Source of the DNA: Bacillota bacterium
GTDB lineage: Bacteria; Bacillota; Clostridia; Acetivibrionales; JANLFN01
Direction of reading: 5' to 3'
Length of the DNA stretch: 64,000 nt
Assembly: GCA_030705825.1 (NCBI GenBank)
Contig: JAUZPR010000001.1
Location: 17,772-81,771, forward strand
Part shown: positions 18,290 to 63,532 of the stretch, in pieces
Position numbering within the stretch: position 1 is the first letter of the stretch
How the letters are laid out: each line of letters begins with the position of its first letter
Notes under the pieces: generated by a model
What the model saw: the letters and a program-made list of their open reading frames with translations, nothing else
The model's database searches: none
What the model was told of the DNA's origin: nothing
Program-made: the position numbers and the translations under genes

Positions 18290-19114
18290 ATGAGTAGAGC
18301 ATATGTGATGGAGGATATTATAGCAGAGACTGTTGAAAGCAGTGCAGCTAAAAATGTAAAAATTGAGATGGATAGTCTTGCAAAAAAATTTTTGGTTAGA
18401 AAAAAAGAAATAGTGGCATTTCATAATGTAAGCTTGAAAATACATGAGGGTGAGTTCTGGTGCTTTGTCGGACCAAGCGGGTGTGGAAAAACTACGCTGC
18501 TGAGAGTATTGGCAGGATTGGAGACCCCAACTTCAGGTACGCTTGCAATACATAGAAACAACCCTGAGAAGCCTTTAAACTCCATGGTGTTTCAGGAATA
18601 TGCCATATTTCCGTGGATGACTGTCTGGGATAATATTGCATACGGACTTAAAAACAGAAAGGTTGAACAGGCCATAATCCAGAGAAATGTATCTGAATAT
18701 GTTGAGAAAATGGGACTTCAAAAATTCGTTAAAGCCTATCCGCACCAACTTTCAGGAGGCATGAAGCAAAGGGTAAGTATCGCAAGGGCATTTGCCAACG
18801 ATGCTGAGATACTACTTATGGATGAACCCTTTGCTTCTCTTGATGAACAGAATAGAATGATTCTGCAGCAGGAGCTTCTTCAGATTTGGGAAAATAATAA
18901 AAAGACAGTGGTTTTTATTACACACAGTATAGGAGAGGCAATCTTTCTGTCTGACCATATAATGGTTATGACAGGCCATCCAGGAGAGATTAAGGACGTA
19001 CTTGATGTTAAGCTTCCAAGGCCCAGAAATATGACGGAATTGCGTTCAAAACCGGTATTCAACATACTTTTTTCAAATATATGGTCGGAAATCAAGGAAG
19101 AAGTTACCAGATAA
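18290..19114 (+). CDS. ABC transporter ATP-binding protein (SsuB/TauB-type)
   Basis: Walker A GPSGCGKTT, signature LSGGMKQR, Walker B ILLMDEPFASLD. Confidence 0.85.
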   Translation: MSRAYVMEDIIAETVESSAAKNVKIEMDSLAKKFLVRKKEIVAFHNVSLKIHEGEFWCFVGPSGCGKTTLLRVLAGLETPTSGTLAIHRNNPEKPLNSMVFQEYAIFPWMTVWDNIAYGLKNRKVEQAIIQRNVSEYVEKMGLQKFVKAYPHQLSGGMKQRVSIARAFANDAEILLMDEPFASLDEQNRMILQQELLQIWENNKKTVVFITHSIGEAIFLSDHIMVMTGHPGEIKDVLDVKLPRPRNMTELRSKPVFNILFSNIWSEIKEEVTR

Positions 19115-19248
19115 AAAAGCAAAAACAAGTACAATCAAAAGTTAAGTAATTTGTTATAACAATGGCACTTAAAACAAATAATAAAATTAGGAATATCAAA
19201 ACCTTTTGGTGTTTATGGATATTTAAAATATGTACGGGAGATGATGCT

Positions 19249-19428
19249 TTGAATAGGGAAAGAGCAAAAGAAATAATGGAATCCCAGGGAATCATACAGG
19301 TACTGTACGGGAGTTCACCTGTTTGGATAGAGGATTTAAATGGTGATAACGCCCAGGTATCCTATATCGGCTCTAATAACAGAATACAAGTACCTCTGAA
19401 TAAATTGAATGAGACCCATCCTATGTAG
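19249..19428 (+). CDS. sspH: Small acid-soluble spore protein, SspH family
   Basis: MNRERAKEIMESQGIIQVLYGSSPVWIEDLNGDNAQVSY matches the SspH pattern (RAKEIxES...V.Y.G.PV.I). The in-frame TTG at 19249 gives the family-typical ~59 aa, so the track ATG 19162 extension is unlikely. Confidence 0.7.
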   Translation: MNRERAKEIMESQGIIQVLYGSSPVWIEDLNGDNAQVSYIGSNNRIQVPLNKLNETHPM

Positions 19429-19447
19429 ACATGCAAAATAATAAAAA

Positions 19448-19518
19448 GGGACTGCCTGAAGAAACTCACGGATAAGGATTATCCATCATCCGTTAAAATT
19501 CTCAGGAGTCCCTTTTTT
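19448..19518 (+). terminator. Compound hairpin terminator after sspH
   Basis: GGGACTGCCTGAAG (19448-19461) pairs with CTCAGGAGTCCC (19501-19512), followed by TTTTTT. An inner hairpin is ACGGA...TCCGT. Confidence 0.6.
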
Positions 19519-19644
19519 ATTGGACTATAAGTGGGAAAGTTGAATTATTAACTTAATTTACAATATGATATAATATGGTGGTAACCAAACGGGCAAATAA
19601 GGCTGAAAATATGAGAACAAATTTGGACAATCAGGGGTGTTATA

Positions 19645-19998
19645 ATGAAATTACACGAGATTATTGAAATATTAAAAGCTGAGGTCCTGACCGGAGACAG
19701 AGAGTCACAAATGGAAATACTCTCGGCATGTGGTTCAGACCTTATGAGTGATGTAATGGCATATGTAAAAGATAATGTTCTTTTACTGACAGGTCTGATT
19801 AACCCACAAGTGATAAGGACGGCAGAAGTTATGGACATAAAGGTTGTAGCTTTTGTAAGAGGAAAAATTCCAGATTCAAATATTCTCGAACTGGCCAGAG
19901 AAAAAGATATAACGGTAATCAGAACGGAATATCCGATGTTTATAGCATGCGGAAAGCTTTACAAGGCAGGAATAACCGGAAGAGGTGCGGATTGTTGA
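19645..19998 (+). CDS. DRTGG domain protein
   Basis: 117 aa. ACGSDLMSDVM...LLLTGLINPQVIRTAEVMDIKVVAFVRGK is the DRTGG-type pattern. It is the first gene of the hydrogenase-associated module. Confidence 0.7.
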   Translation: MKLHEIIEILKAEVLTGDRESQMEILSACGSDLMSDVMAYVKDNVLLLTGLINPQVIRTAEVMDIKVVAFVRGKIPDSNILELAREKDITVIRTEYPMFIACGKLYKAGITGRGADC

Positions 19999-20423
19999 GC
20001 GAGAATCTGATTAATCTCTACTATGTTATAAATGCAAATGACTTTTCGGCTGCCGGTGAAGCATCGGGCAATGTAAAAAAGAAGCTCGTACAGCTGGGTA
20101 TAGATCCTGCAATAATAAAAAAAACTGCAATTTCAATGTATGAAGCCGAAATGAATGCATTTATTCACGCCAATGGCGGAGAGATAAATGTTGAGATAAG
20201 CAATAACAGAATAGTTATTGTAATATCAGACAAAGGTCCCGGAATAGCCGATCTGGATCTGGCTATGAAAGAAGGTTACTCCACAGCTTCCGACAAGGTG
20301 AGGGAAATGGGATTCGGCGCCGGAATGGGCCTTCCCAATATAAAAAGATACTCAGATGAACTGGATATACAAACAGAAGTAGGAAAAGGAACGACGGTAA
20401 GAATTATAGTTTATATAAATTAG
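19995..20423 (+). CDS. RsbW/SpoIIAB-like HATPase_c protein (anti-sigma-factor-type Ser/Thr kinase fold)
   Basis: TTG 19995 overlaps the upstream TGA (TTGA). N-box EAEMNAFIHAN, G1 DKGPGI, G2 GFGAGMGL. Confidence 0.7.
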   Translation: MSENLINLYYVINANDFSAAGEASGNVKKKLVQLGIDPAIIKKTAISMYEAEMNAFIHANGGEINVEISNNRIVIVISDKGPGIADLDLAMKEGYSTASDKVREMGFGAGMGLPNIKRYSDELDIQTEVGKGTTVRIIVYIN

Positions 20424-20777
20424 GTTCATAGTTCATAGTTCAGAGTTCGGAGTTAGGAGTTCAGAGTTCGGAGTTGAGAGTTCAGAGTTCGGGGTTTAGA
20501 GTTTAGAGTTCGGAGTTTAGAGTTCAGAGTCCGGGGTTCAGAGTCCAGAGTTCGAAGCTTTGTAAGTTAAAGTTCATGGTTTGGAGTTTGTAGATTTTAG
20601 AATAACTAAAGTTCGGTTTTATTGGTCGTGATAGTGTTAGCGTTCAGAGTTAGGGGTTGCAATTAAATGTTATGAGTTTAGTATTAATAGCTAAAAGAGT
20701 AATTTAAAAGCTTAAACTCTCAACTCCAAACTTTCAACCCTCAACCCTCAACCATCAACCATCAACTCCGAACTTGA
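20424..20777 (+). repeat. Inverted heptamer-array element A
   Basis: 19 phase-perfect heptamers GTTNNRA (units start at 20424 and then every 7 nt through 20550). Degenerate copies continue to ~20660. Nine heptamers AACNNNN (mostly AACYCTC) at 20715-20777 are reverse-complement types. The SD AGGAGG lies at 20779. Confidence 0.9.
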
Positions 20778-20790
20778 CAGGAGGTTTACA

Positions 20791-22125
20791 ATGGGGACAT
20801 ATTTTCACTCGGTAACTTTAAATGAAGAAAAATGCAGGGGCTGTACCAACTGTATCAAACGGTGCCCTACTGAAGCTATCCGGGTAAGAAAGAGTAAAGC
20901 GCGTATTATTAATGAAAGATGTATAGACTGCGGTGAATGCATCAGAATATGTCCGTATCATGCAAAAAATGCCATAACAGATAAACTTGAAACGATAAAT
21001 TCGTATAAATATAAAGTAGTTATACCTGCCCCATCCTTATATGGGCAGTTTAAGACCATGTACACCAGAAATCATATTCTTACGGCATTGAAGCAGCTCG
21101 GGTTCGATGAGGTTTTTGAAGTCGCAAGAGCTGCCGAGATTGTAAGTGACGCCACAAGAAAGCTGATAGGAAAGGGAGAATTGAAAAAGCCGGTTATTTC
21201 TTCTGCTTGCCCGGCTGTTGTAAGATTGATACAGGTTAGATACCCAAATCTTATTGATAATATTCTAAAGCTGGAATCTCCAATGGAGGTTGCGGCCAAA
21301 ATAGTTAAAAACAAGGTATTGCATGAGAAAAAATTGGATCCTGCCGATATAGGCGTATTCTTTCTGACACCGTGTGCCGCCAAGGCAACAAGTGTAAAAG
21401 CTCCTTACGAAATGGAAAAATCAAATGTAGATGGTGTAATATCTATTAAGGATATTTATTTAAAGCTTTTGTATTTGCTGGAACATGGAACAAGTACTGA
21501 ACAACTTGAAACAGCAGGTTTTGAAGGAATAAGATGGGCTAACCCGGGTGGTGAAAGCCTTGCACTTAACACCGAAAAATTTCTGGCTGTTGACGGAATT
21601 CACAACGTAATTACAATTCTTGAAGAAATAGAAAATGATAAGCTGGAGGATGTTGAATTTATAGAGGCACTTGCCTGCAGCGGAGGTTGCCTTGGTGGAC
21701 CGCTTACCGTAGAAAATGCATACGTTGCAAAAACCAAATTGAAAAAGCATATAGACCAGGCAAAACAAAAGGGTATTGAGGTAGGTCAGACAGATAAGCT
21801 TGACGATGATTTGGTCTGGACAGGCAACATTGAATACAAGCCTGTTATGAAGCTTGACAGTGATTTTGCAAAAGCAATGAAAATGCTTGAGGATCTGGAA
21901 TCAATAAATAATATTCTGCCGGGGTTGGACTGTGGCGCATGCGGCGCACCAAGCTGCAGAGCTCTTGCAGAAGATATAGTCAGGGGTATCGCAAACGAAA
22001 CCGATTGTATTTTCAAGCTCAGGGAAAAAGTCAGAGACCTTGCTTCCCAGATGATAGAGCTGGAAGCAAAAATGCCTCCGGTTCTGGACAGGGAAAATGA
22101 CGACAAACAGGAACAGGAGAGTTGA
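20791..22125 (+). CDS. [FeFe]-hydrogenase-like protein, putative sensory type (2x[4Fe-4S] ferredoxin + Fe_hyd_lg_C + C-terminal Fe-S domain)
   Basis: CRGCTNCIKRCP and CIDCGECIRICP. H-cluster-type motifs SSACP, TPCAAK and ALACSGGCLGGP. The C-terminal LPGLDCGACGAPSCRALAEDI is an RnfB/pfam04060-like Fe-S motif. Confidence 0.75.
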   Translation: MGTYFHSVTLNEEKCRGCTNCIKRCPTEAIRVRKSKARIINERCIDCGECIRICPYHAKNAITDKLETINSYKYKVVIPAPSLYGQFKTMYTRNHILTALKQLGFDEVFEVARAAEIVSDATRKLIGKGELKKPVISSACPAVVRLIQVRYPNLIDNILKLESPMEVAAKIVKNKVLHEKKLDPADIGVFFLTPCAAKATSVKAPYEMEKSNVDGVISIKDIYLKLLYLLEHGTSTEQLETAGFEGIRWANPGGESLALNTEKFLAVDGIHNVITILEEIENDKLEDVEFIEALACSGGCLGGPLTVENAYVAKTKLKKHIDQAKQKGIEVGQTDKLDDDLVWTGNIEYKPVMKLDSDFAKAMKMLEDLESINNILPGLDCGACGAPSCRALAEDIVRGIANETDCIFKLREKVRDLASQMIELEAKMPPVLDRENDDKQEQES

Positions 22126-22126
22126 A

Positions 22127-22501
22127 ATGACAGTAAGAGAGTTGACTGAAAAATTAAACTTGAAACCGGTTACTGCCAAAGCCGGACTGGACAAGCAAGT
22201 AACAGGGCTATATATATGTGACCTCTTAAGTTGGGTAATGTCCCATGCCGGCAGCAGCAATGCATGGATTACTGTACTCACAAATCTTAATACAGTTGCC
22301 GTTGCACTGCTGACCGAGATTTCCTGCATAATCATTCCTGAAGGTATAAAAGCAGAAGAGACAATGGTCAAAAGAGCTGAAACTGAAGACATCGCAGTAC
22401 TTGAAACCGATGACGATGCATACAGCATATGCTGCAAAGCGTACAAAGCGGGAATAGGTAAGGCAGTTGATAGTAGAAAATTGTTGACAGTTGATAGATG
22501 A
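22127..22501 (+). CDS. DRTGG domain protein (second copy)
   Basis: ATG 22127 lies after SD AGGAGAG. YICDLLSWVM...WITVLTNLNTVAVALLTEISCIIIPEG is paralogous to 19645-19998. The last ~7 codons lie inside heptamer array B. Confidence 0.7.
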   Translation: MTVRELTEKLNLKPVTAKAGLDKQVTGLYICDLLSWVMSHAGSSNAWITVLTNLNTVAVALLTEISCIIIPEGIKAEETMVKRAETEDIAVLETDDDAYSICCKAYKAGIGKAVDSRKLLTVDR

Positions 22502-22645
22502 CAATTGACAGTTAAAAACAGCTGAGAATACGTTTTTTTAAAATATTAGTTACATTTATTATATAATTATACGGATGGAGTAGAACCCCATCCCTACTTT
22601 TAAGTTGGTTCAACTGTACACTGTCCTCTGTCAACTGTCAACTAA
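22480..22645 (+). repeat. Inverted heptamer-array element B
   Basis: The left array is ATTGTTG ACAGTTG ATAGATG ACAATTG ACAGTTA AAAACAG (22480-22521). The right array is CAACTGT ACACTGT CCTCTGT CAACTGT CAACTAA (22611-22645), the exact complement family. A central GGATGG/CCATCC hairpin lies at ~22573-22593. Confidence 0.85.
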
Positions 22646-22657
22646 TTAGAGGTGTTT

Positions 22658-23374
22658 ATGAAATTTGCAACTGATCTTCATATCCATTCAGCATTATCAC
22701 CATGTGCGGATAAGGATATGACTCCAAATAACATAGTTAATATGGCAAGATTAAAAGCCTTGGATATAATCGCGGTAACCGATCATAATTCGGCTGAAAA
22801 CATTGAAGCAGTGCTCTCATGCTGCGAAGGCTCGGATGTTTTGACTATTCCGGGAATGGAGATAGAAACAAGGGAGGAAGTACATTTGATTTGTCTTTTC
22901 CCGGACCTTGAGTCGGTTCTTGCAATGCAGAAGAAAGTTTATGATGCACTTCCCGGTTTTAAAAATAATGAAAAAATATTCGGTGAGCAAATCATATTTA
23001 ACAGCAGTGATGAAATTACAGGCAGTGTGGATCAGCTGTTGCTTACAGCAACAAGACTCAGTCTTGAGGAAACAGTATTAAATGTATTAGAATTGGGTGG
23101 GGCAGTGATACCTGCTCATATCGACCGGAATTCCTACAGCATATTATCCAATCTTGGCGGAATTCCTGAAAATCTTAATATTAGGTGGCTGGAAGTCTCC
23201 AGGGGAGGCGATAGGGAAAAATTACTGAAGGAAGTTGATTATTTGTCAAAATATTTCCTATTAACATCTTCCGATGCACACTCTCTGGAAAATATTCTGG
23301 AACGTGAAAATTTTATTGAACTTAGTAATAAGACTGTTGAGAGTCTTTTATGTACCTTACGTAATGGATATTGA
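22658..23374 (+). CDS. PHP-domain (polymerase/histidinol-phosphatase-like) metal-dependent phosphoesterase
   Basis: DLHIHSALSPC, AVTDHNS, PAHIDR and TSSDAHS metal-ligand motifs. ATG 22658 after GAGG. Confidence 0.75.
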   Translation: MKFATDLHIHSALSPCADKDMTPNNIVNMARLKALDIIAVTDHNSAENIEAVLSCCEGSDVLTIPGMEIETREEVHLICLFPDLESVLAMQKKVYDALPGFKNNEKIFGEQIIFNSSDEITGSVDQLLLTATRLSLEETVLNVLELGGAVIPAHIDRNSYSILSNLGGIPENLNIRWLEVSRGGDREKLLKEVDYLSKYFLLTSSDAHSLENILERENFIELSNKTVESLLCTLRNGY

Positions 23375-23492
23375 AAATTTAAAAGGAAATGCTGAAATAG
23401 TAACATTAGTACTACCATTTCTTTGACAAAATCCCTTTTGTTAAAAAAATCAAATTCAAAACAATAAATGCTTTGCTTTTTTGTTATCTGTA

Positions 23493-23521
23493 TTGAATGT
23501 TTTACGAAAATTTGTTATAAT
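23493..23521 (+). promoter_or_regulatory. Promoter of the hydrogenase operon
   Basis: TTGAAT (23493-23498), a 17-nt spacer, then TGT-TATAAT (extended -10, 23513-23521). Confidence 0.65.
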
Positions 23522-23529
23522 GTTAACGA
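23512..23529 (+). promoter_or_regulatory. Rex (redox-sensing repressor) operator 1
   Basis: TTGTTATAATGTTAACGA compared with the clostridial Rex consensus TTGTTAAnnnnTTAACAA. It overlaps the -10. Confidence 0.65.
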
Positions 23530-23532
23530 AAT

Positions 23533-23550
23533 TTGTTAAATACTTAACAC
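23533..23550 (+). promoter_or_regulatory. Rex operator 2
   Basis: TTGTTAAATACTTAACAC matches TTGTTAAnnnnTTAACAA at 13 of 14 specified positions. Confidence 0.7.
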
Positions 23551-23602
23551 ATCTTACGGACAATCACAAAAAATTACATCTTTTATTGGGAGGTTGTATT
23601 CA

Positions 23603-24103
23603 ATGGGTGACAATATGTGCTGCTGCGGGTCTGCTGACGTAATGGACCAGAAGCTGCAGGAAATCATTGAGAGGTACAAGGATACCAATGGCGCACTAAT
23701 TCCGGTTTTGCACGAAGCTCAGGAGTTGTACGGATACCTGCCTATGGAAGTTCAGATGAAAATATCTGAAGGGCTTGGTATTACTCTTTCTGAGATATAT
23801 GGGGTCGTGACATTCTATACCCAGTTTTCATTGAAGCCAAAGGGAAAAAACAGAATATCGGTTTGTCTGGGTACAGCATGTTATGTTAAAGGCGCAAACC
23901 ATATCCTTGATAAACTTAAGGAGAAGCTGGGAATAGAAGTTGGTGACTGCACCGAGGATGGAAAATTCTCGCTTGATGCTTGCAGATGTATAGGCGCATG
24001 TGGCCTTGCACCTGTTATGATGATCAATGACGATGTTTATGGGAGACTGACTCCGGATGAAATAGAAGGTATAATCGAGAAGTATAAAAACAGGCAGGAC
24101 TAA
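23603..24103 (+). CDS. hydC: NADH-linked [FeFe]-hydrogenase, NuoE-like [2Fe-2S] subunit
   Basis: CLGTACYVKG...CRCIGACGLAPVMMIND is the thioredoxin-like 2Fe-2S pattern. ATG 23603 lies 9 nt after GGGAGG. Confidence 0.85.
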   Translation: MGDNMCCCGSADVMDQKLQEIIERYKDTNGALIPVLHEAQELYGYLPMEVQMKISEGLGITLSEIYGVVTFYTQFSLKPKGKNRISVCLGTACYVKGANHILDKLKEKLGIEVGDCTEDGKFSLDACRCIGACGLAPVMMINDDVYGRLTPDEIEGIIEKYKNRQD

Positions 24104-28619: not shown

Positions 28620-28656
28620 TAATAAAGATTACTAAGATAAAATAAATAAGTTTTGA

Positions 28657-28694
28657 ATAAGGTTGAAACCTTTAAGGTTTCAACCTTATTTTTT
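28657..28694 (+). terminator. Rho-independent terminator after hydA
   Basis: ATAAGGTTGAAACC pairs with GGTTTCAACCTTAT, followed by TTTTT. Confidence 0.85.
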
Positions 28695-36772: not shown

Positions 36773-36800
36773 TTACCGGATACCCGGTTTGCCTTTAAAT

Positions 36801-36828
36801 AAAAATGCCTTCATATGAAGGCATTTTT
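36801..36828. terminator. Bidirectional terminator between the ABC-2 operon and the TetR gene
   Basis: AAAAATGCCTTCATATGAAGGCATTTTT is a perfect palindrome. Confidence 0.85.
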
Positions 36829-36864
36829 ATTTAAGCATTATTAAGCTATATTTCTTACTTGTGT

Positions 36865-57712: not shown

Positions 57713-57789
57713 GTACTTGAAATTGATAACATTTTTTTGTATAATTGTAATAATATCTTTTTAAAGAATACTAAATAATATAAATACAA

Positions 57790-58046
57790 TGATGGAGAAG
57801 AGTATATTCGGGGATTTTAAGAGAGCCGGCGGTTGGTGCAAGCCGGTAAAAAACCGGATTGAACGCAGCTCCTGAGTATCTCCTTGAGAAATTTGAATTA
57901 CTTTCAAAGAATAGAGGAAGACGGTTAACTCCACGTTACAGGGGTACAATGTGAATGCATTGGTTAAAGTTGACGCTTAAAGCGTAATTAGGGTGGTACC
58001 GCGATTTACTCCTTCGTCCCTTGTACAGGGACCGAGGAGTTTTTAT
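57790..58046 (+). promoter_or_regulatory. T-box leader (tRNA-sensing transcription attenuator)
   Basis: Stem I has a GA/K-turn (TGATGG / CCTGAGTA), the specifier-loop 5' side AAGAGTA, an AGAGAG bulge and the distal loop GGTTGGTGCAA. The T-box sequence AATTAGGGTGGTACCGCG lies at 57986-58003. The terminator is CTCCTTCGTCCC / GGGACCGAGGAG plus TTTTT (58009-58045). Confidence 0.85.
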
Positions 58047-58143: not shown

Positions 58144-58623
58144 ATGGAAGAAATTCTGGAAATCCTGGAAAAGAACAATAAGCTTACCGAAGAGCAGATA
58201 GCGGTCATGCTGGGTAAAAGTGTACAGGAAGTAAAAGAAGCCATAAAAAAGTACGAAGATGAAAAAGTAATAGTAGGTTACAGTACGTTGATTAATTGGG
58301 ATAAGACCAACAAGGAAAAGGTTATAACACTTATAGAAGTCAAAGTGACTCCACAGAGAGGAGAGGGCTTTGATAAGGTGGCAGAGAGGATATACAGGTA
58401 TCCTGAAGTAAAGGCATGCTATCTGATGTCTGGTGGTTTTGATCTTACAGTCATAATCGAAGGGAAAACAATGAAAGAAGTAGCCCTGTTCGTTGCAGAA
58501 AAGCTTGCGCCATTGGAATCTGTTTTGAGTACGGCTACACATTTTGTTCTTAAAAAATATAAGGACGAGGGCATAACGTTTGAAGACAAGGAAAAGGATG
58601 ACAGGGAGGCTGTTGTCTTATGA
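58144..58623 (+). CDS. Lrp/AsnC family transcriptional regulator
   Basis: N-terminal wHTH (ILEILEKNNKLTEEQIAVMLGKSVQEV) plus an RAM/ACT-like C-domain. Confidence 0.85.
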   Translation: MEEILEILEKNNKLTEEQIAVMLGKSVQEVKEAIKKYEDEKVIVGYSTLINWDKTNKEKVITLIEVKVTPQRGEGFDKVAERIYRYPEVKACYLMSGGFDLTVIIEGKTMKEVALFVAEKLAPLESVLSTATHFVLKKYKDEGITFEDKEKDDREAVVL

Positions 58624-59789
58624 ACATAGGGGATATGATTCTTCCGCATGTTAAAAGTGTACCTCCTTCCGGTATAAGAAAATACTTTGATATGATCAAT
58701 GAAATGAAGGACGCAATTTCTCTTGGTATAGGCGAGCCTGACTTTGTTACTCCATGGAATATCAGAGAAGCTGGAATATATTCACTTGAGCAGGGGCATA
58801 CCCACTATTCGGCAAACGCAGGCTTTATTGAGCTGAGGGAAGAGATATCAAGGTACATGAAAAGAAAACATGGCCTTGAATATAAACCGAGAGAAGAAAT
58901 TGTTGTAACGGTTGGGGGAAGTGAGGCCATAGATGCAGCGCTCAGGGCGCTGGCCGGACCTGGTGATGAGGTGATCATACCGGAACCGAGTTTTGTTGCA
59001 TACAAGGGCTGCGCATCATTTTGCGGTGCAACACCGGTAGTAATAGACTTAAAAGCCGAGAACCAGTTCAGGTTGACTCCGGAGCAGCTTGAAAACGCAT
59101 TGACGCCAAAAACCAAGGTTGTCATAATACCTTTCCCAAACAACCCGACAGGTGCCATAATGCCAGGGGAGGATATGGCCCGGATTGCAGAAATACTTAA
59201 AGACAGGGATGTAATTGTATTATCGGATGAGCTGTACTCCGAACTTACGTATGAGGGCAGGCATATGTCGATAGCAAGCTATCCTGGAATGAAAGAAAAG
59301 ACTATTGTCATAAATGGTTTTTCAAAGGCTTATGCAATGACCGGCTGGAGGATAGGCTATGCCTGCGGACACAGAGATCTGATCAGCGTCATGACTAAAA
59401 TACATCAGTACGCAATAATGTGTTCACCTACAACCGCACAGCATGCTGCGATTGAAGCCCTCCGCAACAGCGATCATGATGTGGAAAGTATGAAAAGAGA
59501 ATATAACAGGCGCAGACGGGCTATGGTTGATGGGTTTAGAAGAATGGGGCTTGACTGCTTCGAACCTCTGGGCGCTTTTTATGTATTTCCGTGTATTAAA
59601 TCGACAGGTCTGACTTCGGATGAATTCTGTGAAAAGCTTCTTGCAGAGGAAAAAGTCCTGGTTGTACCGGGAAATGCATTTGGAGAATGCGGAGAAGGAT
59701 TTGTAAGAGCCACCTATGCAAACTCGATAGAGAATATATTTGAAGCAATTAAAAGGATAGAAAGGTTTGTTAATAACTGCAGAAAATAA
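58620..59789 (+). CDS. Class I/II PLP-dependent aminotransferase (AspC/AlaT-like)
   Basis: GEPDF, NPTG and the SFSKAYAMTGWRIGY PLP-lysine motif. ATGA overlap with the regulator gene. Confidence 0.85.
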   Translation: MNIGDMILPHVKSVPPSGIRKYFDMINEMKDAISLGIGEPDFVTPWNIREAGIYSLEQGHTHYSANAGFIELREEISRYMKRKHGLEYKPREEIVVTVGGSEAIDAALRALAGPGDEVIIPEPSFVAYKGCASFCGATPVVIDLKAENQFRLTPEQLENALTPKTKVVIIPFPNNPTGAIMPGEDMARIAEILKDRDVIVLSDELYSELTYEGRHMSIASYPGMKEKTIVINGFSKAYAMTGWRIGYACGHRDLISVMTKIHQYAIMCSPTTAQHAAIEALRNSDHDVESMKREYNRRRRAMVDGFRRMGLDCFEPLGAFYVFPCIKSTGLTSDEFCEKLLAEEKVLVVPGNAFGECGEGFVRATYANSIENIFEAIKRIERFVNNCRK

Positions 59790-61551: not shown

Positions 61552-62136
61552 ATGGCTGGAGAAAAATATATCGTCGCTACACTGGACAATCCGTCACAAA
61601 TTAATATTCGTAATATTTTAAATCCGGGTGGTTACATATTTCTGGGTAATTGCTTTGATCCTGTTTCTCTTCTAAGGTTAATAAGAAGTTATAATCCGGA
61701 TTTTGTTGTAGTAGATTTGGGTATGCAGCCCAGAGAACTCAGAAAGACAATAGAAACAATAGATGATGAAATGCTGTGTGCCTGCATAGCATTAGGTGAT
61801 TACAGGGATATTGAAAACGAAAATCTTGTTCAAAGATGCAAGGTACTTACATTATGCCAAAAGCCTCTAAGCAGGGAAATATTTTTGAACACGGTTGAAT
61901 TGGCTAATATGTATTACAAAAGACTGAGCGAAACCGAACAGAAACTAAAGGAAATGACAGAAAATTATGAAACAAGAAAATCGGTAGAGCGTGCAAAGTG
62001 GATTCTCATTAAAAGGGATGGTATCAGCGAAGCAGAGGCTTATGAACGTATGAGGAAAAAGAGTATGGATTCAAGGCTTACAATGAAAGCAATTGCAGAG
62101 GCAATTATATTTACCCATGAGATAGAAGGAAAGTAA
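61552..62136 (+). CDS. ANTAR-domain RNA-binding antiterminator with an N-terminal pseudo-receiver
   Basis: The C-terminal RKSVERAKWILIKRDGISEAEAYERMRKKSMDSRLTMKAIAEAII is the ANTAR pattern. The N-terminal domain has VVVDLG but lacks the acidic DD pair. Confidence 0.8.
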   Translation: MAGEKYIVATLDNPSQINIRNILNPGGYIFLGNCFDPVSLLRLIRSYNPDFVVVDLGMQPRELRKTIETIDDEMLCACIALGDYRDIENENLVQRCKVLTLCQKPLSREIFLNTVELANMYYKRLSETEQKLKEMTENYETRKSVERAKWILIKRDGISEAEAYERMRKKSMDSRLTMKAIAEAIIFTHEIEGK

Positions 62137-62384
62137 GTAAATAGTTAGGAGTTAAGAGTTAAGAGTTAAGAGTTAAGAGTTGGGAGTAGTGAGTAAGGAG
62201 TTAGGGGTTTATGGTTCAGAGTTCGGAGTAAAATAGTTGGGAGTTGGGAATTTAGGAGTGATATCCTGTAGGGAACGGCGCCCCGCCATTCCGCTATAGT
62301 TAAAGGAATATTTCTAACTCTGAACTCCTAACCCCGAACTATGAACCCTGTAACTCCAAACTACGAACCACAAACCCCGAACTA
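62137..62384 (+). repeat. Inverted heptamer-array element C
   Basis: The element starts at the base after the stop codon. It has 14 in-phase heptamers (GTAAATA GTTAGGA GTTAAGA x4 GTTGGGA ... GTTCAGA GTTCGGA GTAAAAT, 62137-62234) plus 2 more after a +1 slip (62236-62249). The central GC hairpin is GGAACGGCG-ccc-CGCCATTCC (62272-62292). Ten complementary heptamers (TAACTCT GAACTCC TAACCCC ... CGAACTA) lie at 62315-62384. Confidence 0.9.
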
Positions 62385-62412
62385 ATCAATTATATTTTAG
62401 GAGATGATTTTT

Positions 62413-63532
62413 GTGATTGAACTTGATCAATTCAAGCTTGAAATTGACGAAATTAAAGGTGTTCTGGACGAAATGAGGGCTTCACTTTGACATCGCCAGG
62501 TTAAATGACGAAATAGCAGAACTGGAGATGAAATCAACAGAACCGGATTTTTGGAATGACATTGAAAATTCACAGAAAATACTTCAGAGGACCAAAAACC
62601 TTAAGACCAAGCTGGAACAGTTCCAGAAGATGGAGATGCAGTGCGACGATTTAAAAACCTTGAATGAGCTTGGTATTGAAGAAAATGATGATAGTGTAAT
62701 ACCTGAAATACAGGAAGGTTTGAAAAAGCTCAAAGAAAATTATGAAAAGCTTAAGCTTGAAACACTCCTGACAGGTCCATATGATAAAAACAATGCCATC
62801 ATAACAATGCATGCGGGTGCCGGTGGAACCGAAGCCCAGGATTGGGTACAGATGCTTCTGAGAATGTATACACGCTGGGGTGAAAGCAGGGGCTTTACCG
62901 TAAAAATTCTGGACTTCCTTGACGGTGAAGAGGCAGGAGTCAAGAGTGTGACAATTCACGTCATAGGCGACAATGCATACGGCTATCTAAGATCTGAGAA
63001 GGGAGTCCACAGGCTTGTCAGGATATCTCCTTTTGATGCATCAGGAAGAAGGCACACATCTTTTGCTTCGGTAGATGTTATGCCCGAATTGGATGATACG
63101 GTGGAAGTTGATATAGACCCTGACGACCTCCGTGTTGATACCTACCGTGCAAGTGGGGCTGGTGGACAGCACATTAACAAGACCGAATCCGCAATCAGAA
63201 TTACACATATTCCCACCGGCGTTGTCGTATCATGTCAGACTGAACGTTCACAGTTCCAAAACAGGGATACGGCTATGAAAATGTTGAAGGCCAAGCTTTT
63301 GGAATTAAAAGAGCGGGAACATAAAGAAAAGATAGAGGATTTAAAAGGAATACAAATGGAAATTGCATGGGGCAGCCAGATAAGATCTTATGTTTTTTGT
63401 CCCTATACACTTGTAAAAGACCACAGAAGCAACTATGAAGAAGGTAATGTCCAGTCTGTTATGGATGGGGAATTGGATGGCTTCATAAATTCCTACCTCT
63501 CAATGGGCGCTTTAAAGAAGGAAGAGCAATAA
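62413..63532 (+). CDS. prfB: Peptide chain release factor 2, programmed +1 frameshift (62413-62487 joined to 62489-63532)
   Basis: ORF0 is VIELDQFKLEIDEIKGVLDEMRASL-stop. The CTT TGA C shift site lies at 62485-62491 with an internal SD-like GAGGG at 62475-62479. The downstream frame gives DIARLNDEI...SPF...GGQHINKTESAIRITH (the GGQ motif). Confidence 0.9.
62475..62491 (+). promoter_or_regulatory. prfB autoregulatory +1 frameshift site
   Basis: GAGGG-cttca-CTT TGA C has the classical RF2 recoding architecture. Confidence 0.85.

Follow-up and report, generated by a model that had tools for sequence, protein, structure and literature searches.

The window analyzed here, a stretch of 64,000 nt from a Bacillota MAG, contains three elements, A, B and C, which share a common layout of a stop codon, a G/T-rich heptamer array, a core, a complementary array and an SD (Table 1). 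The layout can be written as 5'-(AGTTNRG)n ... core ... (CYNAACT)m-3' and reads identically on both strands; the same order of parts had been given in a preliminary description of the locus and holds for the architecture of the elements. A and B lie in a hydrogenase-sensor cluster, C lies between an ANTAR response-regulator gene and prfB, and these host junctions have no functional theme in common. A and C are intergenic, and the overlap of B with coding sequence is limited to the last codons of an extended ORF. The G/T-rich array starts 0 nt after the upstream stop codon in A and 6 nt after it in C (TAA, 62134-62136, of the ANTAR gene), and overlaps the stop codon in B.

Table 1 Parts of elements A, B and C and their flanking signals (positions counted from the first nucleotide of the window).
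Feature	Position	Strand	Description
TAG stop of HATPase_c (histidine-kinase-like) gene 19947-20423	20421-20423	+	Element A begins at the next base
Element A, left G/T-rich array	20424-20556	+	19 in-phase heptamers, consensus AGTTNRG, 21-nt higher-order period
Element A, core	20557-20714	+	Decayed heptamers to ~20662, then AT-rich non-repetitive stretch
Element A, right C/A-rich array	20715-20777	+	9 in-phase AACNNNN units; other strand RGTTGAN-type
SD AGGAGG (20779-20784) and ATG (20791)	20779-20793	+	HydS-like [FeFe]-hydrogenase-domain gene 20791-22125
DRTGG gene, 14-codon extension and TGA stop	22457-22501	+	Read from the flank and left-arm sequence of B
Element B, left arm	22465-22516	+	AGTTGAT, AGTAGAA, (AATTGTTGAC), AGTTGAT, AGATGAC, AATTGAC, AGTTAAA
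Element B, core	22517-22609	+	AT-rich; small hairpin GGATGG...CCATCC
Element B, right arm	22610-22643	+	GTCAACT-type units; ends 4 nt 5' of SD AGAGGTG (22648-22654)
Element C, left array	62143-62262	+	AGTTAGG, AGTTAAG x4, AGTTGGG ...
Element C, core	62263-62315	+	GC-rich hairpin (GGAACGGCG-CCC-CGCCATTCC)
Element C, right array	62316-62383	+	AACTCTG, AACTCCT, AACCCCG ...

The HATPase_c protein encoded upstream of element A ends at the residue homologous to the C-terminus of the protein in the nearest relative. The 19 phase-perfect heptamers that had been described straight after its TAG were confirmed without a single phase slip, and in the AGTT phase they read GGTTCAT, AGTTCAT, AGTTCAG, AGTTCGG, AGTTAGG ... 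AGTTCGA. G2 and T3 are present in 19/19 units, A1 in 16/19 and T4 in 17/19, the variable positions being 5-6. TRF detects 18.6 copies with a period of 7 (78% match) and 6.0 copies with a period of 21 (85% match), the latter being the better fit. The sequence likewise agrees with the reported decay of copies to ~20660 (GTT-phase remnants at 20572-20592 and 20642-20662) and with the nine complementary units that follow, and the right array does end 1 nt before the SD, from which a single C (20778) separates it. The two arms of A carry variants of their own: at position 5, A-left has C and A-right has G.

Recurrence of the architecture at two further sites had also been proposed. Both sites are real and C (62143-62383) belongs to the same repeat family and has the same build as A, but B (22465-22643) has a different unit variant, AGTTGAC / GTCAACT, unlike A and C, and its left arm lies partly within the DRTGG ORF. 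C-left contains four identical AGTTAAG units in a row (TRF period 7, 5.6 copies, 96% match), and C-right ends 15 nt 5' of the SD AGGAGA (62399-62404) of prfB, the GTG start of which is at 62413. The DRTGG ORF enters the left arm of B and stops at 22499-22501, so this arm is partly coding; the alignment of its product to the 110-aa protein of the nearest relative stops at residue 120 of 134. An inverted-repeat search pairs the arms of B over 39 nt with 79% complementarity. For the PHP-domain gene downstream of B, an ATG start at 22658 was picked by homology to the nearest relative.

A search for four consecutive AGTTN3 units with up to one mismatch resulted in 20 matches in the window, all within A and C, compared with 0.00 in 100 shuffles, which excludes chance. 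Outside A, B and C the window holds no 3-unit AGTT chain, and 2-unit chains are no commoner than by chance (2 observed, 3.6 expected). The cores of A, B and C show no similarity to each other beyond that of shuffles.

All three elements are predicted to fold stably as RNA, A at -100.4 kcal/mol (z -3.7), B at -52.4 (z -3.0) and C at -90 (z -4.9). The arms of A can pair in three registers, 20-21 nt apart, with 78%, 74% and 73% complementarity, and together with the predicted folds of A, B and C these registers bear out the proposal of an imperfect hairpin able to slide through many registers. A-left RNA alone self-folds (-36.6 kcal/mol, z -6.3; its complement -8.1), and the A-right array alone is predicted to be unstructured (0 kcal/mol). 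The SD of the HydS-like gene is unpaired in the predicted minimum-free-energy fold, and the predicted hairpins of B and C likewise leave their SD free. Pairing of the A arms leaves a systematic C-C mismatch in most heptamers, by which RNase III cutting may be weakened. The number of terminator-like sites (GC-rich hairpin followed by a U tract) in 19000-24000 is 0, which rules out an intrinsic terminator in that interval.

The arms include promoter-like hexamers, among them TTGACA (in B, and where A ends), and a promoter-like TTAAAA-18-TATAAT lies in the core of B (22538-22567). Compared with shuffles, the region shows no enrichment of such sites (18 vs an expected 13.9 +/- 3.7).

Several known classes of repeats and binding sites were compared with the elements. 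A CRISPR array is ruled out, as the units are contiguous 7-mers without spacers, not 24-48-nt repeats with unique spacers of about equal length between them. Rfam yielded no relevant match at the gathering cut-off or at E<=1, the sole hit being a plant miRNA (E=0.26; 24.6 bits vs an 83-bit cut-off). Integron attC sites have the form RYYYAAC ... GTTRRRY, with the inverse core first and the core last; some units fit GTTRRR, but in our elements the GTT arrays come first and the AAC arrays last, and attC is ruled out. A TRAP (mtrB) site consists of 9-11 (G/U)AG triplets 2-3 nt apart, whereas GAG every 7 nt leaves 4-nt spacers; a TRAP site is ruled out on this spacing, and the loose analogy to TRAP that had been drawn does not stand.

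More generally, the arrays might bind an oligomeric protein, either on RNA (TRAP-like, or CsrA/Csp/S1-like) or on DNA. The nearly invariant AGTT core and final G beside variable positions 5-6 would suit a binding array, as would the 21-nt higher-order period, equal to two helical turns of DNA, and S1, Csp or CsrA binding was proposed by MacGregor for the TAACTGA repeats (PMC4679880). However, conservation of the core could go back to a small number of founder units that were amplified, relatives do not share the elements at these loci, and the GAG spacing is not that of TRAP; we regard a binding array as very improbable.

A, B and C are lineage-specific, as none of the relatives examined has them at the corresponding sites. 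In the nearest relative (80% amino acid identity, syntenic) the spacers are 33 nt at the A site and 16 nt at the B site and contain no heptamers, and at the C site the spacers of three relatives are ~64-97 nt vs 277 nt here. No period-7 array was found at 75 orthologous metagenome junctions (426 kb), where the median spacer is 40 nt and the maximum 148. The ancestral junctions are 16-40 nt in relatives vs 190-370 nt here, and the absence of arrays from the same junctions implies that the elements originated recently inside very short intercistronic spacers. The elements do not constitute a conserved operon element, since every orthologous junction examined is without an array. No second strain was found by an exact look-up of the HydS-like protein and its identical database entry, which gave no contig, and an exact 29-mer spanning the SD and start of the HydS-like gene had no match in metagenomes. 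The locus provides a clean Bacillota example with a known ancestral state; in annotation, A, B and C should be treated as recent non-coding insertions; they should not be taken for a conserved element that regulates the hydrogenase cluster.

This absence bears on the possibility that the hairpins are a selected intercistronic RNA device, kept because they tune how stable or how well translated the flanking cistrons are relative to each other, be it through selective processing and stabilization of the RNA or through translational insulation or coupling, with the C/A-rich arm serving as a ribosome standby site. All three elements lie exactly between a stop codon and an SD, the predicted hairpins are stable and accompanied by no terminator, and the C/A-rich arm right before the SD is fully unstructured by prediction. 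Comparable placements are found elsewhere: in viral contigs L159 and L194, in which several such arrays occur, one junction or more has (CTCAACT)n directly 5' of an SD and start, and TAACTGA repeats are located just 5' of start codons in Beggiatoaceae. In addition, the hmw hairpin of Haemophilus influenzae is needed for expression, and intergenic stem-loops control transcript stability and operon stoichiometry in cellulolytic clostridia (PMC4423207, PMC8219983). Yet the elements are missing from every orthologous junction examined in relatives, their three host junctions have no common theme and their arms are poorly matched and evolve independently. Ancestral spacers of only 16-40 nt make adjacency to stop and SD expected for any insertion, and Rehm et al. 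found no regulatory role for the repeats of Xanthomonas and Nostoc (PMC4692102). We consider a selected device unlikely, albeit the strongest of the alternatives.

Arrays of four AGTTNRG units are widespread. At least 120 stretches were found in Nostocales, Bacteroidales, Clostridia, Planctomycetota, Verrucomicrobiota and others, and 101 in viral contigs; AGTTAGG-type arrays with the paired layout are abundant in Nostocales. One cultivable carrier is Haloimpatiens lingqiaonensis KCTC 15321, with an array in NZ_CP172402.1 (848-856 kb). By crude ORF calling, 146 of 175 arrays in a wider sample are intergenic though 83% of the sequence is coding (17% non-coding), and where array and upstream gene are on the same strand, the median distance from the stop codon to the array is 2 nt. 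Among the matches listed, a complementary partner is present for about 29% of the arrays, ~70% having no detectable one. Where the partner exists in genomes, it is 3' of the G/T-rich array 33 times vs 5' once among the matches listed, and in viral contigs it is downstream 11 times vs upstream once. Avoidance of Rho/rut as the cause of this polarity is rejected, because cyanobacteria, which to our knowledge lack Rho, are rich in arrays. The idea that AGTT is a unique recognition motif was withdrawn: in viral contigs permuted cores also form arrays (ATGT 42, GTTA 46 and TGTA 19 stretches vs AGTT 101), AGTT being only ~2-5 times commoner. One homologous pair of viral contigs, L159 and L194, shows no change of unit number, the 7-nt slots being equal. 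Some genomes carry multiple copies with a conserved core (L030, and viral contig L175), which hints at copy-and-paste spread beside local growth; a pair of copies in L030 with a common core differs in the unit, (AGTTGAG)4 in the first and (AGTTGAT)4 in the second.

Such copies raise the question of mobility. Like A, B and C, REP/BIME/REPIN sequences and MITEs are short, lineage-specific non-coding sequences that lie between genes and form hairpins. They are fixed 20-40-nt palindromes or elements that have defined ends along with target-site duplications and a transposase of their own; they are transcribed together with neighboring genes, and REP elements stabilize upstream mRNA. Around 41 paired elements we found neither target-site duplications nor common termini, and the proteins of the window that were scanned include no transposase, RAYT or IS200-like gene. 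REP/BIME/REPIN is ruled out by a unit that is a tandem 7-mer of variable number, by the unrelated cores and by the lack of duplications; MITEs are ruled out by the missing duplications and common termini and the unrelated cores of A, B and C. The earlier statement that the elements are not CRISPR, REP/BIME or classic MITE sequences is hence upheld by the tandem 7-mers, unrelated cores and absent duplications. A MITE-like non-autonomous element, with the heptamer arrays acting as terminal inverted repeats for some transposase or recombinase, would still be in line with the fixed polarity (33 vs 1 among the matches listed, 11 vs 1), with presence here and absence in relatives, with the conserved-core copies in L030 and L175 and with the arrays in viral contigs. 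The 41 paired elements without duplications or conserved termini, the unrelated cores, the widely different arm lengths (19 vs 9 units), the ~70% of arrays (among the matches listed) without a detectable partner and the lack of a transposase in the window argue against it. The abundance of arrays with permuted cores moreover indicates that no special recognition motif is needed, and we find a mobile element of this kind distinctly improbable.

We propose, with a probability of roughly 0.55, that A, B and C are locally amplified foldback heptamer repeats that are co-transcribed as long imperfect hairpins and tolerated, with a consequence for RNase III processing or stability as a side effect. 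The elements would have grown in place by slipped-strand amplification in steps of 7, 14 or 21 nt and not by transposition of a fixed element. The better fit of period 21 than of period 7 in A, the variants private to each arm, the unit divergence in L030 and the 7-nt-step variation on record may together be read as a signature of amplification. A, B and C would be transcribed with their flanking genes, and the base of the hairpin would bring the upstream stop codon and the downstream SD together, by which the insertion would be tolerated. The hairpins are probably a site of RNase III cleavage or a determinant of stability: by analogy to hmw, the main consequence would be double-strand-specific (RNase III-type) processing, protection of the 3' end of the upstream segment, or both, arising as a side effect and not as a conserved, selected regulatory device. 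The role in intercistronic RNA processing or stability that had been suggested is therefore plausible in view of the RNase III precedent of hmw (PMC12721329) and the clostridial stem-loops, although folding and cleavage at these junctions are predictions. A point against the proposed reading is that the arms are only 73-79% complementary.

Purely neutral slippage predicts weaker regularities than the near-absolute polarity and the placement of arrays directly at stop codons, both of which speak against local growth. Fixed polarity and the stop-adjacent G/T-rich array would be best read as a filter on tolerated RNA, in which a self-folding, SD-like G/U-rich arm may be tolerated after a stop codon and a C/A-rich arm, for its lack of structure, 5' of a ribosome-binding site; a G/T-rich nascent strand that expands more readily may add to the polarity. 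A more far-reaching conjecture, which we put forward with little confidence and by analogy to hmw, is that AGTT-core foldback arrays are more than passive by-products of slippage and form a cross-phylum class that propagates and resizes itself via its own transcript, through RNA hairpin- and RNase III-dependent repeat dynamics, and that the elements set the stoichiometry of the hydrogenase-sensor module by mRNA segmentation. If true, such transcript-driven resizing would account both for the near-absolute polarity and for G/U-rich arms that begin at stop codons.

The preliminary description also suggested a slippage-prone contingency tract, in which changes of unit number would switch or tune the neighboring gene by phase variation. 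The hmw heptamer repeat of H. influenzae does so, and C-left, with its four identical units and 96% match, would suit such a role. However, degeneracy such as that of A (78% match) suppresses slippage, the arrays are located outside reading frames and do not set promoter spacing, their neighbors are housekeeping or regulatory genes and do not encode surface antigens, and Rehm et al. were likewise negative about contingency in their own repeats (PMC4692102). We give this role very low credence.

Local amplification, the reading we prefer, can be set against the heptamer repeats of other organisms. A search of the literature for the literal array sequences gave only unrelated primer matches. Over-representation of intergenic heptamer repeats in bacteria has reportedly been noted since 2007, as the LSSR of Mrazek, and we know of no accepted function or origin for them. 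The elements fit this class of intergenic heptameric simple-sequence repeats (Mrazek 2007 LSSR; Rehm 2015) in their 7-nt units, non-coding bias, convergence and adjacency to stop codons. The supposition that they are of an undescribed type does not hold, since convergent intergenic heptamer repeats have been described in Xanthomonas (PMC4692102) and heptamer hairpins in Nostoc (PMC3488679); the class is described, its function is not, and the refuting match that had been named beforehand, to a described family of known function, thus applies only by half.

The intergenic heptameric repeats GGGAATC of Xanthomonas and GGGGAYT of Nostoc (Rehm et al. 2015, PMC4692102) are 89-93% intergenic and form 70-75 convergent inverted pairs per genome; the G-rich array in Xanthomonas is on average 28 nt from the 5' ORF vs 160 nt to the next ORF, and array lengths differ between related species. 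Similarly to these repeats, A, B and C consist of tandem 7-nt units with some positions conserved and others variable, and their arrays are convergent, the G-rich arm coming first and adjoining the 3' end of the upstream ORF. Unlike them, A, B and C reside in a low-GC host and have units without G-tracts, hence without G-quadruplex potential; the arrays are longer and more degenerate, and A and B lie inside an operon between stop codon and SD.

The hmw hairpin is the sole experimentally dissected relative of A, B and C. In the 5'-UTR of H. influenzae hmw1A, a phase-variable (ATCTTTC)n repeat forms a long hairpin that is cut by RNase III and required for expression, and repeat-number change, as argued from its data, likewise depends on transcription and on the RNA hairpin (Rapun-Araiz et al. 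2025, PMC12721329). Our elements share with hmw1A a heptamer repeat that makes up one side of a long, imperfect hairpin 5' of a gene, the opposite side being complementary to it. In hmw1A, in contrast, the repeat arm is pyrimidine-rich and precedes a G-rich arm that is not repetitive, its units are perfect and undergo active phase variation, and the site is the 5'-UTR of an adhesin gene and not intercistronic.

According to PMC3488679, which cites Costa et al. [quoted passage not shown] P6b differs from A, B and C in being embedded in a group I intron and not between protein genes, in its unit classes and in its cyanobacterial host. The STRR sequences of cyanobacteria, reportedly described by Mazel et al. 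in 1990, are ruled out, their units being CCCCAGT, TTGGTCA and CAACAGT (STRR1-3) in heterocystous cyanobacteria vs AGTTNRG and AGTTGAC in a Bacillota MAG here.

The TAACTGA repeats of Beggiatoaceae, Cyanobacteria and Bacteroidetes (MacGregor 2015, PMC4679880) are intergenic, immediately 5' of start codons and phylogenetically sporadic, are missing from the same spacers in close relatives, and occur in sets of 2-6 units (169 direct vs 1 inverted), often in place of an SD. They share the AACT core, which they carry on the sense strand, and a sporadic, lineage-specific distribution with A, B and C, but the unit differs and the repeats are direct, so that identity is ruled out. Variation of length in 7-nt steps is on record for the heptamer class (PMC4679880, PMC3488679, PMC4692102). 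Our survey suggests that the regularities of one Xanthomonas motif, convergent polarity and a G-rich arm against the upstream stop codon, extend to an unrelated motif, that with the AGTT core, across many phyla and viral contigs. In Bacillota, A, B and C correspond to the heptamer repeats of Xanthomonas, Nostoc/Calothrix, Beggiatoaceae/Bacteroidetes and the hmw locus of H. influenzae.

Element A, like B and C a set of facing heptamer arrays in a gene-gene gap, consists of a G/T-rich left array in AGTT phase, a core, and a complementary, C/A-rich right array in AAC phase. The sequence agrees with the preliminary description of A as an uninterrupted run of heptamers starting right after the stop codon, with decayed copies and complementary units reaching to the SD. 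Among the left units (AGTT phase), G2 and T3 are invariant (19/19), A1, T4, and G7 are found in 16/19, 17/19, and 16/19, respectively, position 5 is chiefly C, and either A or G occupies position 6. Decayed copies extend as far as ~20662 and are followed by an AT-rich stretch. The elements are tandem 7-mers with a higher-order period: Tandem Repeats Finder describes the left array of A better with period 21 (6.0 copies, 85% match) than with period 7 (18.6 copies, 78% match), which implies that triplets of units were amplified together.

Positions of the heptamer elements and adjoining features
Feature	Position	Description
HATPase_c gene	19947-20423	TAG stop at 20421-20423
Element A, left array	from 20424	19 consecutive 7-nt units, no phase slip
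Element A, right array	20715-20777	9 in-phase AAC units
Element A, downstream side	20779-20784 (AGGAGG)	1 nt between right array and AGGAGG; ATG at 20791
Element B	arms 22465-22516 and 22610-22643	unit AGTTGAC/GTCAACT
Element C	left 62143-62262; core 62263-62315; right 62316-62383	family common to A

The four-core pattern (at most 1 mismatch) matched 20 times in the window, always within A and C, and 0 times in 100 shuffles; outside A, B, and C the window contains no 3-unit chains, and 2-unit chains occur there at chance level. The proposed recurrence of the architecture at two further sites is borne out: C shares the family of A, and B uses another unit, its left arm being partly coding. B is not wholly intergenic because the upstream DRTGG ORF overlaps its left arm: 14 extra codons are read via the flank into the arm, up to a TGA at 22499-22501, the ancestral stop codon having been replaced by the B insertion. 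The resulting 14-residue C-terminal tail of the DRTGG protein, encoded at 22457-22501 (flank and B left arm), is GKAVDSRKLLTVDR. The three elements have mutually unrelated cores.

Between A and B lie a HydS-like [FeFe]-hydrogenase-domain gene and a DRTGG gene, in a cluster (DRTGG, HATPase_c, HydS-like, DRTGG, PHP) located upstream of NuoE/NuoF/HydA-type hydrogenase genes; C separates an ANTAR response-regulator gene from prfB. The window belongs to a Bacillota MAG (protein MDP4091763.1), the relatives of which include Pseudobacteroides, Herbivorax, and Anaerobacterium. In the closest database relative, which keeps the gene order and has a HydS-like protein 80% identical, the HATPase_c stop lies 33 nt from the HydS-like start, the DRTGG-PHP spacer is 16 nt, and neither the A nor the B junction contains heptamers. 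The HATPase_c proteins of the window and the relative terminate at a homologous residue, therefore A starts exactly after the ancestral stop. Across 75 further orthologous metagenome junctions (47-74% identity), upstream spacers are at most 148 nt long, with 40 nt as the median, and no period-7 array was found in the 426 kb of loci holding them. At the C site the spacer is about 64-97 nt in three relatives versus 277 nt in the window. As the junctions of the relatives are short and heptamer-free, the elements did not belong to these operons ancestrally; A, B, and C are recent and lineage-local, and do not represent a conserved trait of the operon. Alongside this distribution, and despite the strong folding predicted for A, B, and C, a selected intercistronic RNA device appears unlikely.

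C may have displaced the promoter of prfB, since the ANTAR-prfB spacers of two of the three relatives (L525 3086-3182 and L528 3086-3149) carry an extended -10-like box, GTTATAAT, of which only the remnant CAATTATATTTT is found in the window at 62384-62412, adjoining C. The prfB gene (62413-63532) appears to carry the classic programmed +1 frameshift, with ORF0 running from GTG 62413 to CTT TGA C at 62485-62491 and the PCRF/RF-1 frame continuing to 63532; CTTTGAC is also found in L525 and L528. A full-length T-box leader (125 bits versus a gathering score of 93) is located at 57780-58024 (+), upstream of ORFs 58144-59789. Just 5' of the NuoE-like gene, a 21-nt direct repeat (23490-23550) with two TTGTTA(N5-6)TTAAC boxes (TTGTTATAATGTTAACG and TTGTTAAATACTTAACA) overlaps a promoter-like TTGAAT-17-TATAAT with extended TG. 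The box pair resembles paired Rex-type operators, putatively of the HydABC-type hydrogenase operon. Two perfect palindromes, one between convergent genes (36795-36834, 20+20 nt arms, no loop) and one directly 3' of the HydA-like gene (28656-28690, 17+17 nt arms), are likely (bidirectional) terminators.

In RNA, each of the three elements has a long, imperfect hairpin as its predicted fold, at -100.4 kcal/mol for A (z -3.7), -52.4 for B (z -3.0), and -90.0 for C (z -4.9), energies that no shuffle equalled. The SD is unpaired in the predicted fold of A. Terminator-like sites were absent from 19000-24000 and no enrichment of promoter-like hexamers was found; the predicted structures are long hairpins without terminators. 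Pairing of the arms, which are only 73-79% complementary, is possible in several registers spaced by about 21 nt; together with the predicted folds, this supports the sliding hairpin suggested previously. The mismatch in A is systematic: position 5 is mostly C in the left array and G in right-arm units read on the other strand, hence a C-C mismatch in most heptamers. The arms differ when folded alone. The G/U-rich array of A reaches -36.6 kcal/mol (z -6.3) through G-U pairs, its complement -8.1, and in both A and C the C/A-rich right arm is predicted to be unstructured (0 kcal/mol). DNA ensemble energies are weak, those of the G/T-rich strands being about twice those of their complements. Rfam gave no match at gathering score or E<=1, except one chance plant miRNA hit. 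An array serving for protein binding is a very remote prospect.

An exact AGTTNRG x4 scan, one genome per species, found at least 120 stretches, the matches listed including many Nostocales, rumen/gut Bacteroidales, Planctomycetota, Verrucomicrobiota, and Acidobacteriota, as well as Clostridia (Haloimpatiens, Acutalibacteraceae, and MAGs). Viral contigs contained 101 stretches, versus 19-46 for permuted cores; the AGTT core is common, not unique. Among the matches listed, 146/175 arrays were intergenic although 83% of the DNA was coding (by a crude ORF caller). For the 115 listed arrays with full flanks, a complementary AAC-phase partner (at least 3 units within 350 nt) was found on the 3' side in 33 cases and on the 5' side in one (11 versus 1 in the viral set); a stricter 4-letter partner gave 22 versus 0 among the listed genome matches and 6 versus 0 in viruses. 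This polarity is genuine, with the G/T-rich arm 5' on either strand, because a paired element reads alike on both strands. Additional period-7 tracts within 250 nt were mostly C/A-rich downstream and G/T-rich upstream.

Placement is likewise asymmetric among the matches listed. The 155 intergenic arrays lie a median of 10 nt from the 5'-side gene versus 93 nt from the 3'-side gene; arrays start a median of 2 nt past the stop of a same-strand 5' gene (4 nt in convergent spacers), for those on the non-coding strand the median distance to the next start is 70 nt, and divergent spacers show no placement preference. A, B, and C follow the polarity and placement rules of heptamer repeats elsewhere.

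The AGTT array-core-AACT array arrangement occurs in Limisphaerales, Planctomycetota, Bacteroidales, Nostoc, and a Clostridia MAG, the core frequently containing a small hairpin rich in GC. A rumen Bacteroidales MAG (L030, 6152-6676) has two copies 430 nt apart with a common core and right arm, both falling, by a crude ORF call, within an opposite-strand ORF of 311 aa; the left units, four per copy, read AGTTGAG throughout in one and AGTTGAT throughout in the other, the whole array having changed in concert. The viral contig L175 (IMGVR_UViG_3300035688_000092) has four or more paired AGTTGRG elements, the core of which, GGCCGGATYTTCGACTCT, is conserved. Such shared cores might recall a MITE-like element; however, 41 paired elements had neither target-site duplications nor common termini, no transposase was found among the scanned window proteins (the others having ordinary chromosomal functions), and A, B, and C are without transposon marks, a MITE-like origin being quite improbable. 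The related viral contigs L159 and L194 contain five or more (AGTTGAG)4-7 arrays; at one junction the opposite strand of the array gives (CTCAACT)n immediately 5' of SD and start. In Rivularia and Plectonema (L039, L069, L113) a small hairpin, GTAGAGACG...CGTCTC, recurs a little way 3' of AGTTAGG arrays and is reminiscent of the small dispersed repeats reportedly nested in Nostoc heptamer arrays. Many arrays lie at contig ends (L007, L008, L038, L051, L081, L090, L100, and others), thus short-read assemblies commonly break there, and unit counts in short-read MAG assemblies may be unreliable. That the arrays are contingency tracts, varying in unit number, is highly improbable.

We propose, with a probability of roughly 0.55, that A, B, and C are recent heptamer hairpins grown in place, with processing or protection as their main consequence rather than a conserved regulatory role; the observation made in the preliminary description is confirmed and its interpretation partly supported. 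The growth would proceed by slipped-strand amplification, and the elements would be transcribed together with their neighbours. The hairpin would keep the downstream SD in physical proximity to the upstream stop, so that a 190-370-nt insertion into a 16-40-nt junction would be tolerable. The main consequence would be RNase III-type processing or 3'-end protection. The polarity may mirror tolerance in RNA: a self-folding arm rich in SD-like GGAG would be harmless after a stop and harmful before a start, and an unstructured C/A-rich arm harmless or helpful ahead of a ribosome-binding site. Mutational bias may contribute, because slipped-out units can gain stability in a nascent strand rich in G and T.

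The structure itself is already known. According to Mrazek's finding, as summarised by MacGregor (2015, PMC4679880), heptanucleotides are the commonest type of long simple-sequence repeat in most genomes, with polymerase slippage as a possible cause. TAACTGA repeats occur just 5' of start codons and are missing from the same spacers in close relatives (MacGregor 2015, PMC4679880). In Xanthomonas, GGGAATC repeats (~185 per genome, 89-93% intergenic) form convergent array pairs on opposite strands in 70-75 cases, the G-rich array averaging 28 nt from the 5' ORF as against 160 nt from the one that follows; repeat lengths are not conserved between species and a regulatory role was not found (Rehm et al. 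2015, PMC4692102). The P6b hairpin of the Nostoc tRNA-Leu intron is formed by pairing of degenerate heptanucleotide repeats of variable unit number (PMC3488679). In H. influenzae, (ATCTTTC)n upstream of hmw1A is transcribed and pairs with a complementary arm into a long, imperfect hairpin that RNase III cuts on one strand; the data argue for a dependence of both hmw expression and repeat-number change on transcription, folding, and RNase III (PMC12721329). In cellulolytic clostridia, intergenic stem-loops fix the relative stability of operon segments (PMC4423207, PMC8219983). The cross-phylum polarity and the stop-codon rule sharpen the question posed by this still-unexplained repeat class. 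The type of repeat, unrecognised in the preliminary description, does differ in unit and host, but its kind had already been described in Xanthomonas, Nostoc, and H. influenzae; in view of these earlier descriptions, A belongs to the known kind of intergenic heptamer repeats, with another unit and another host.
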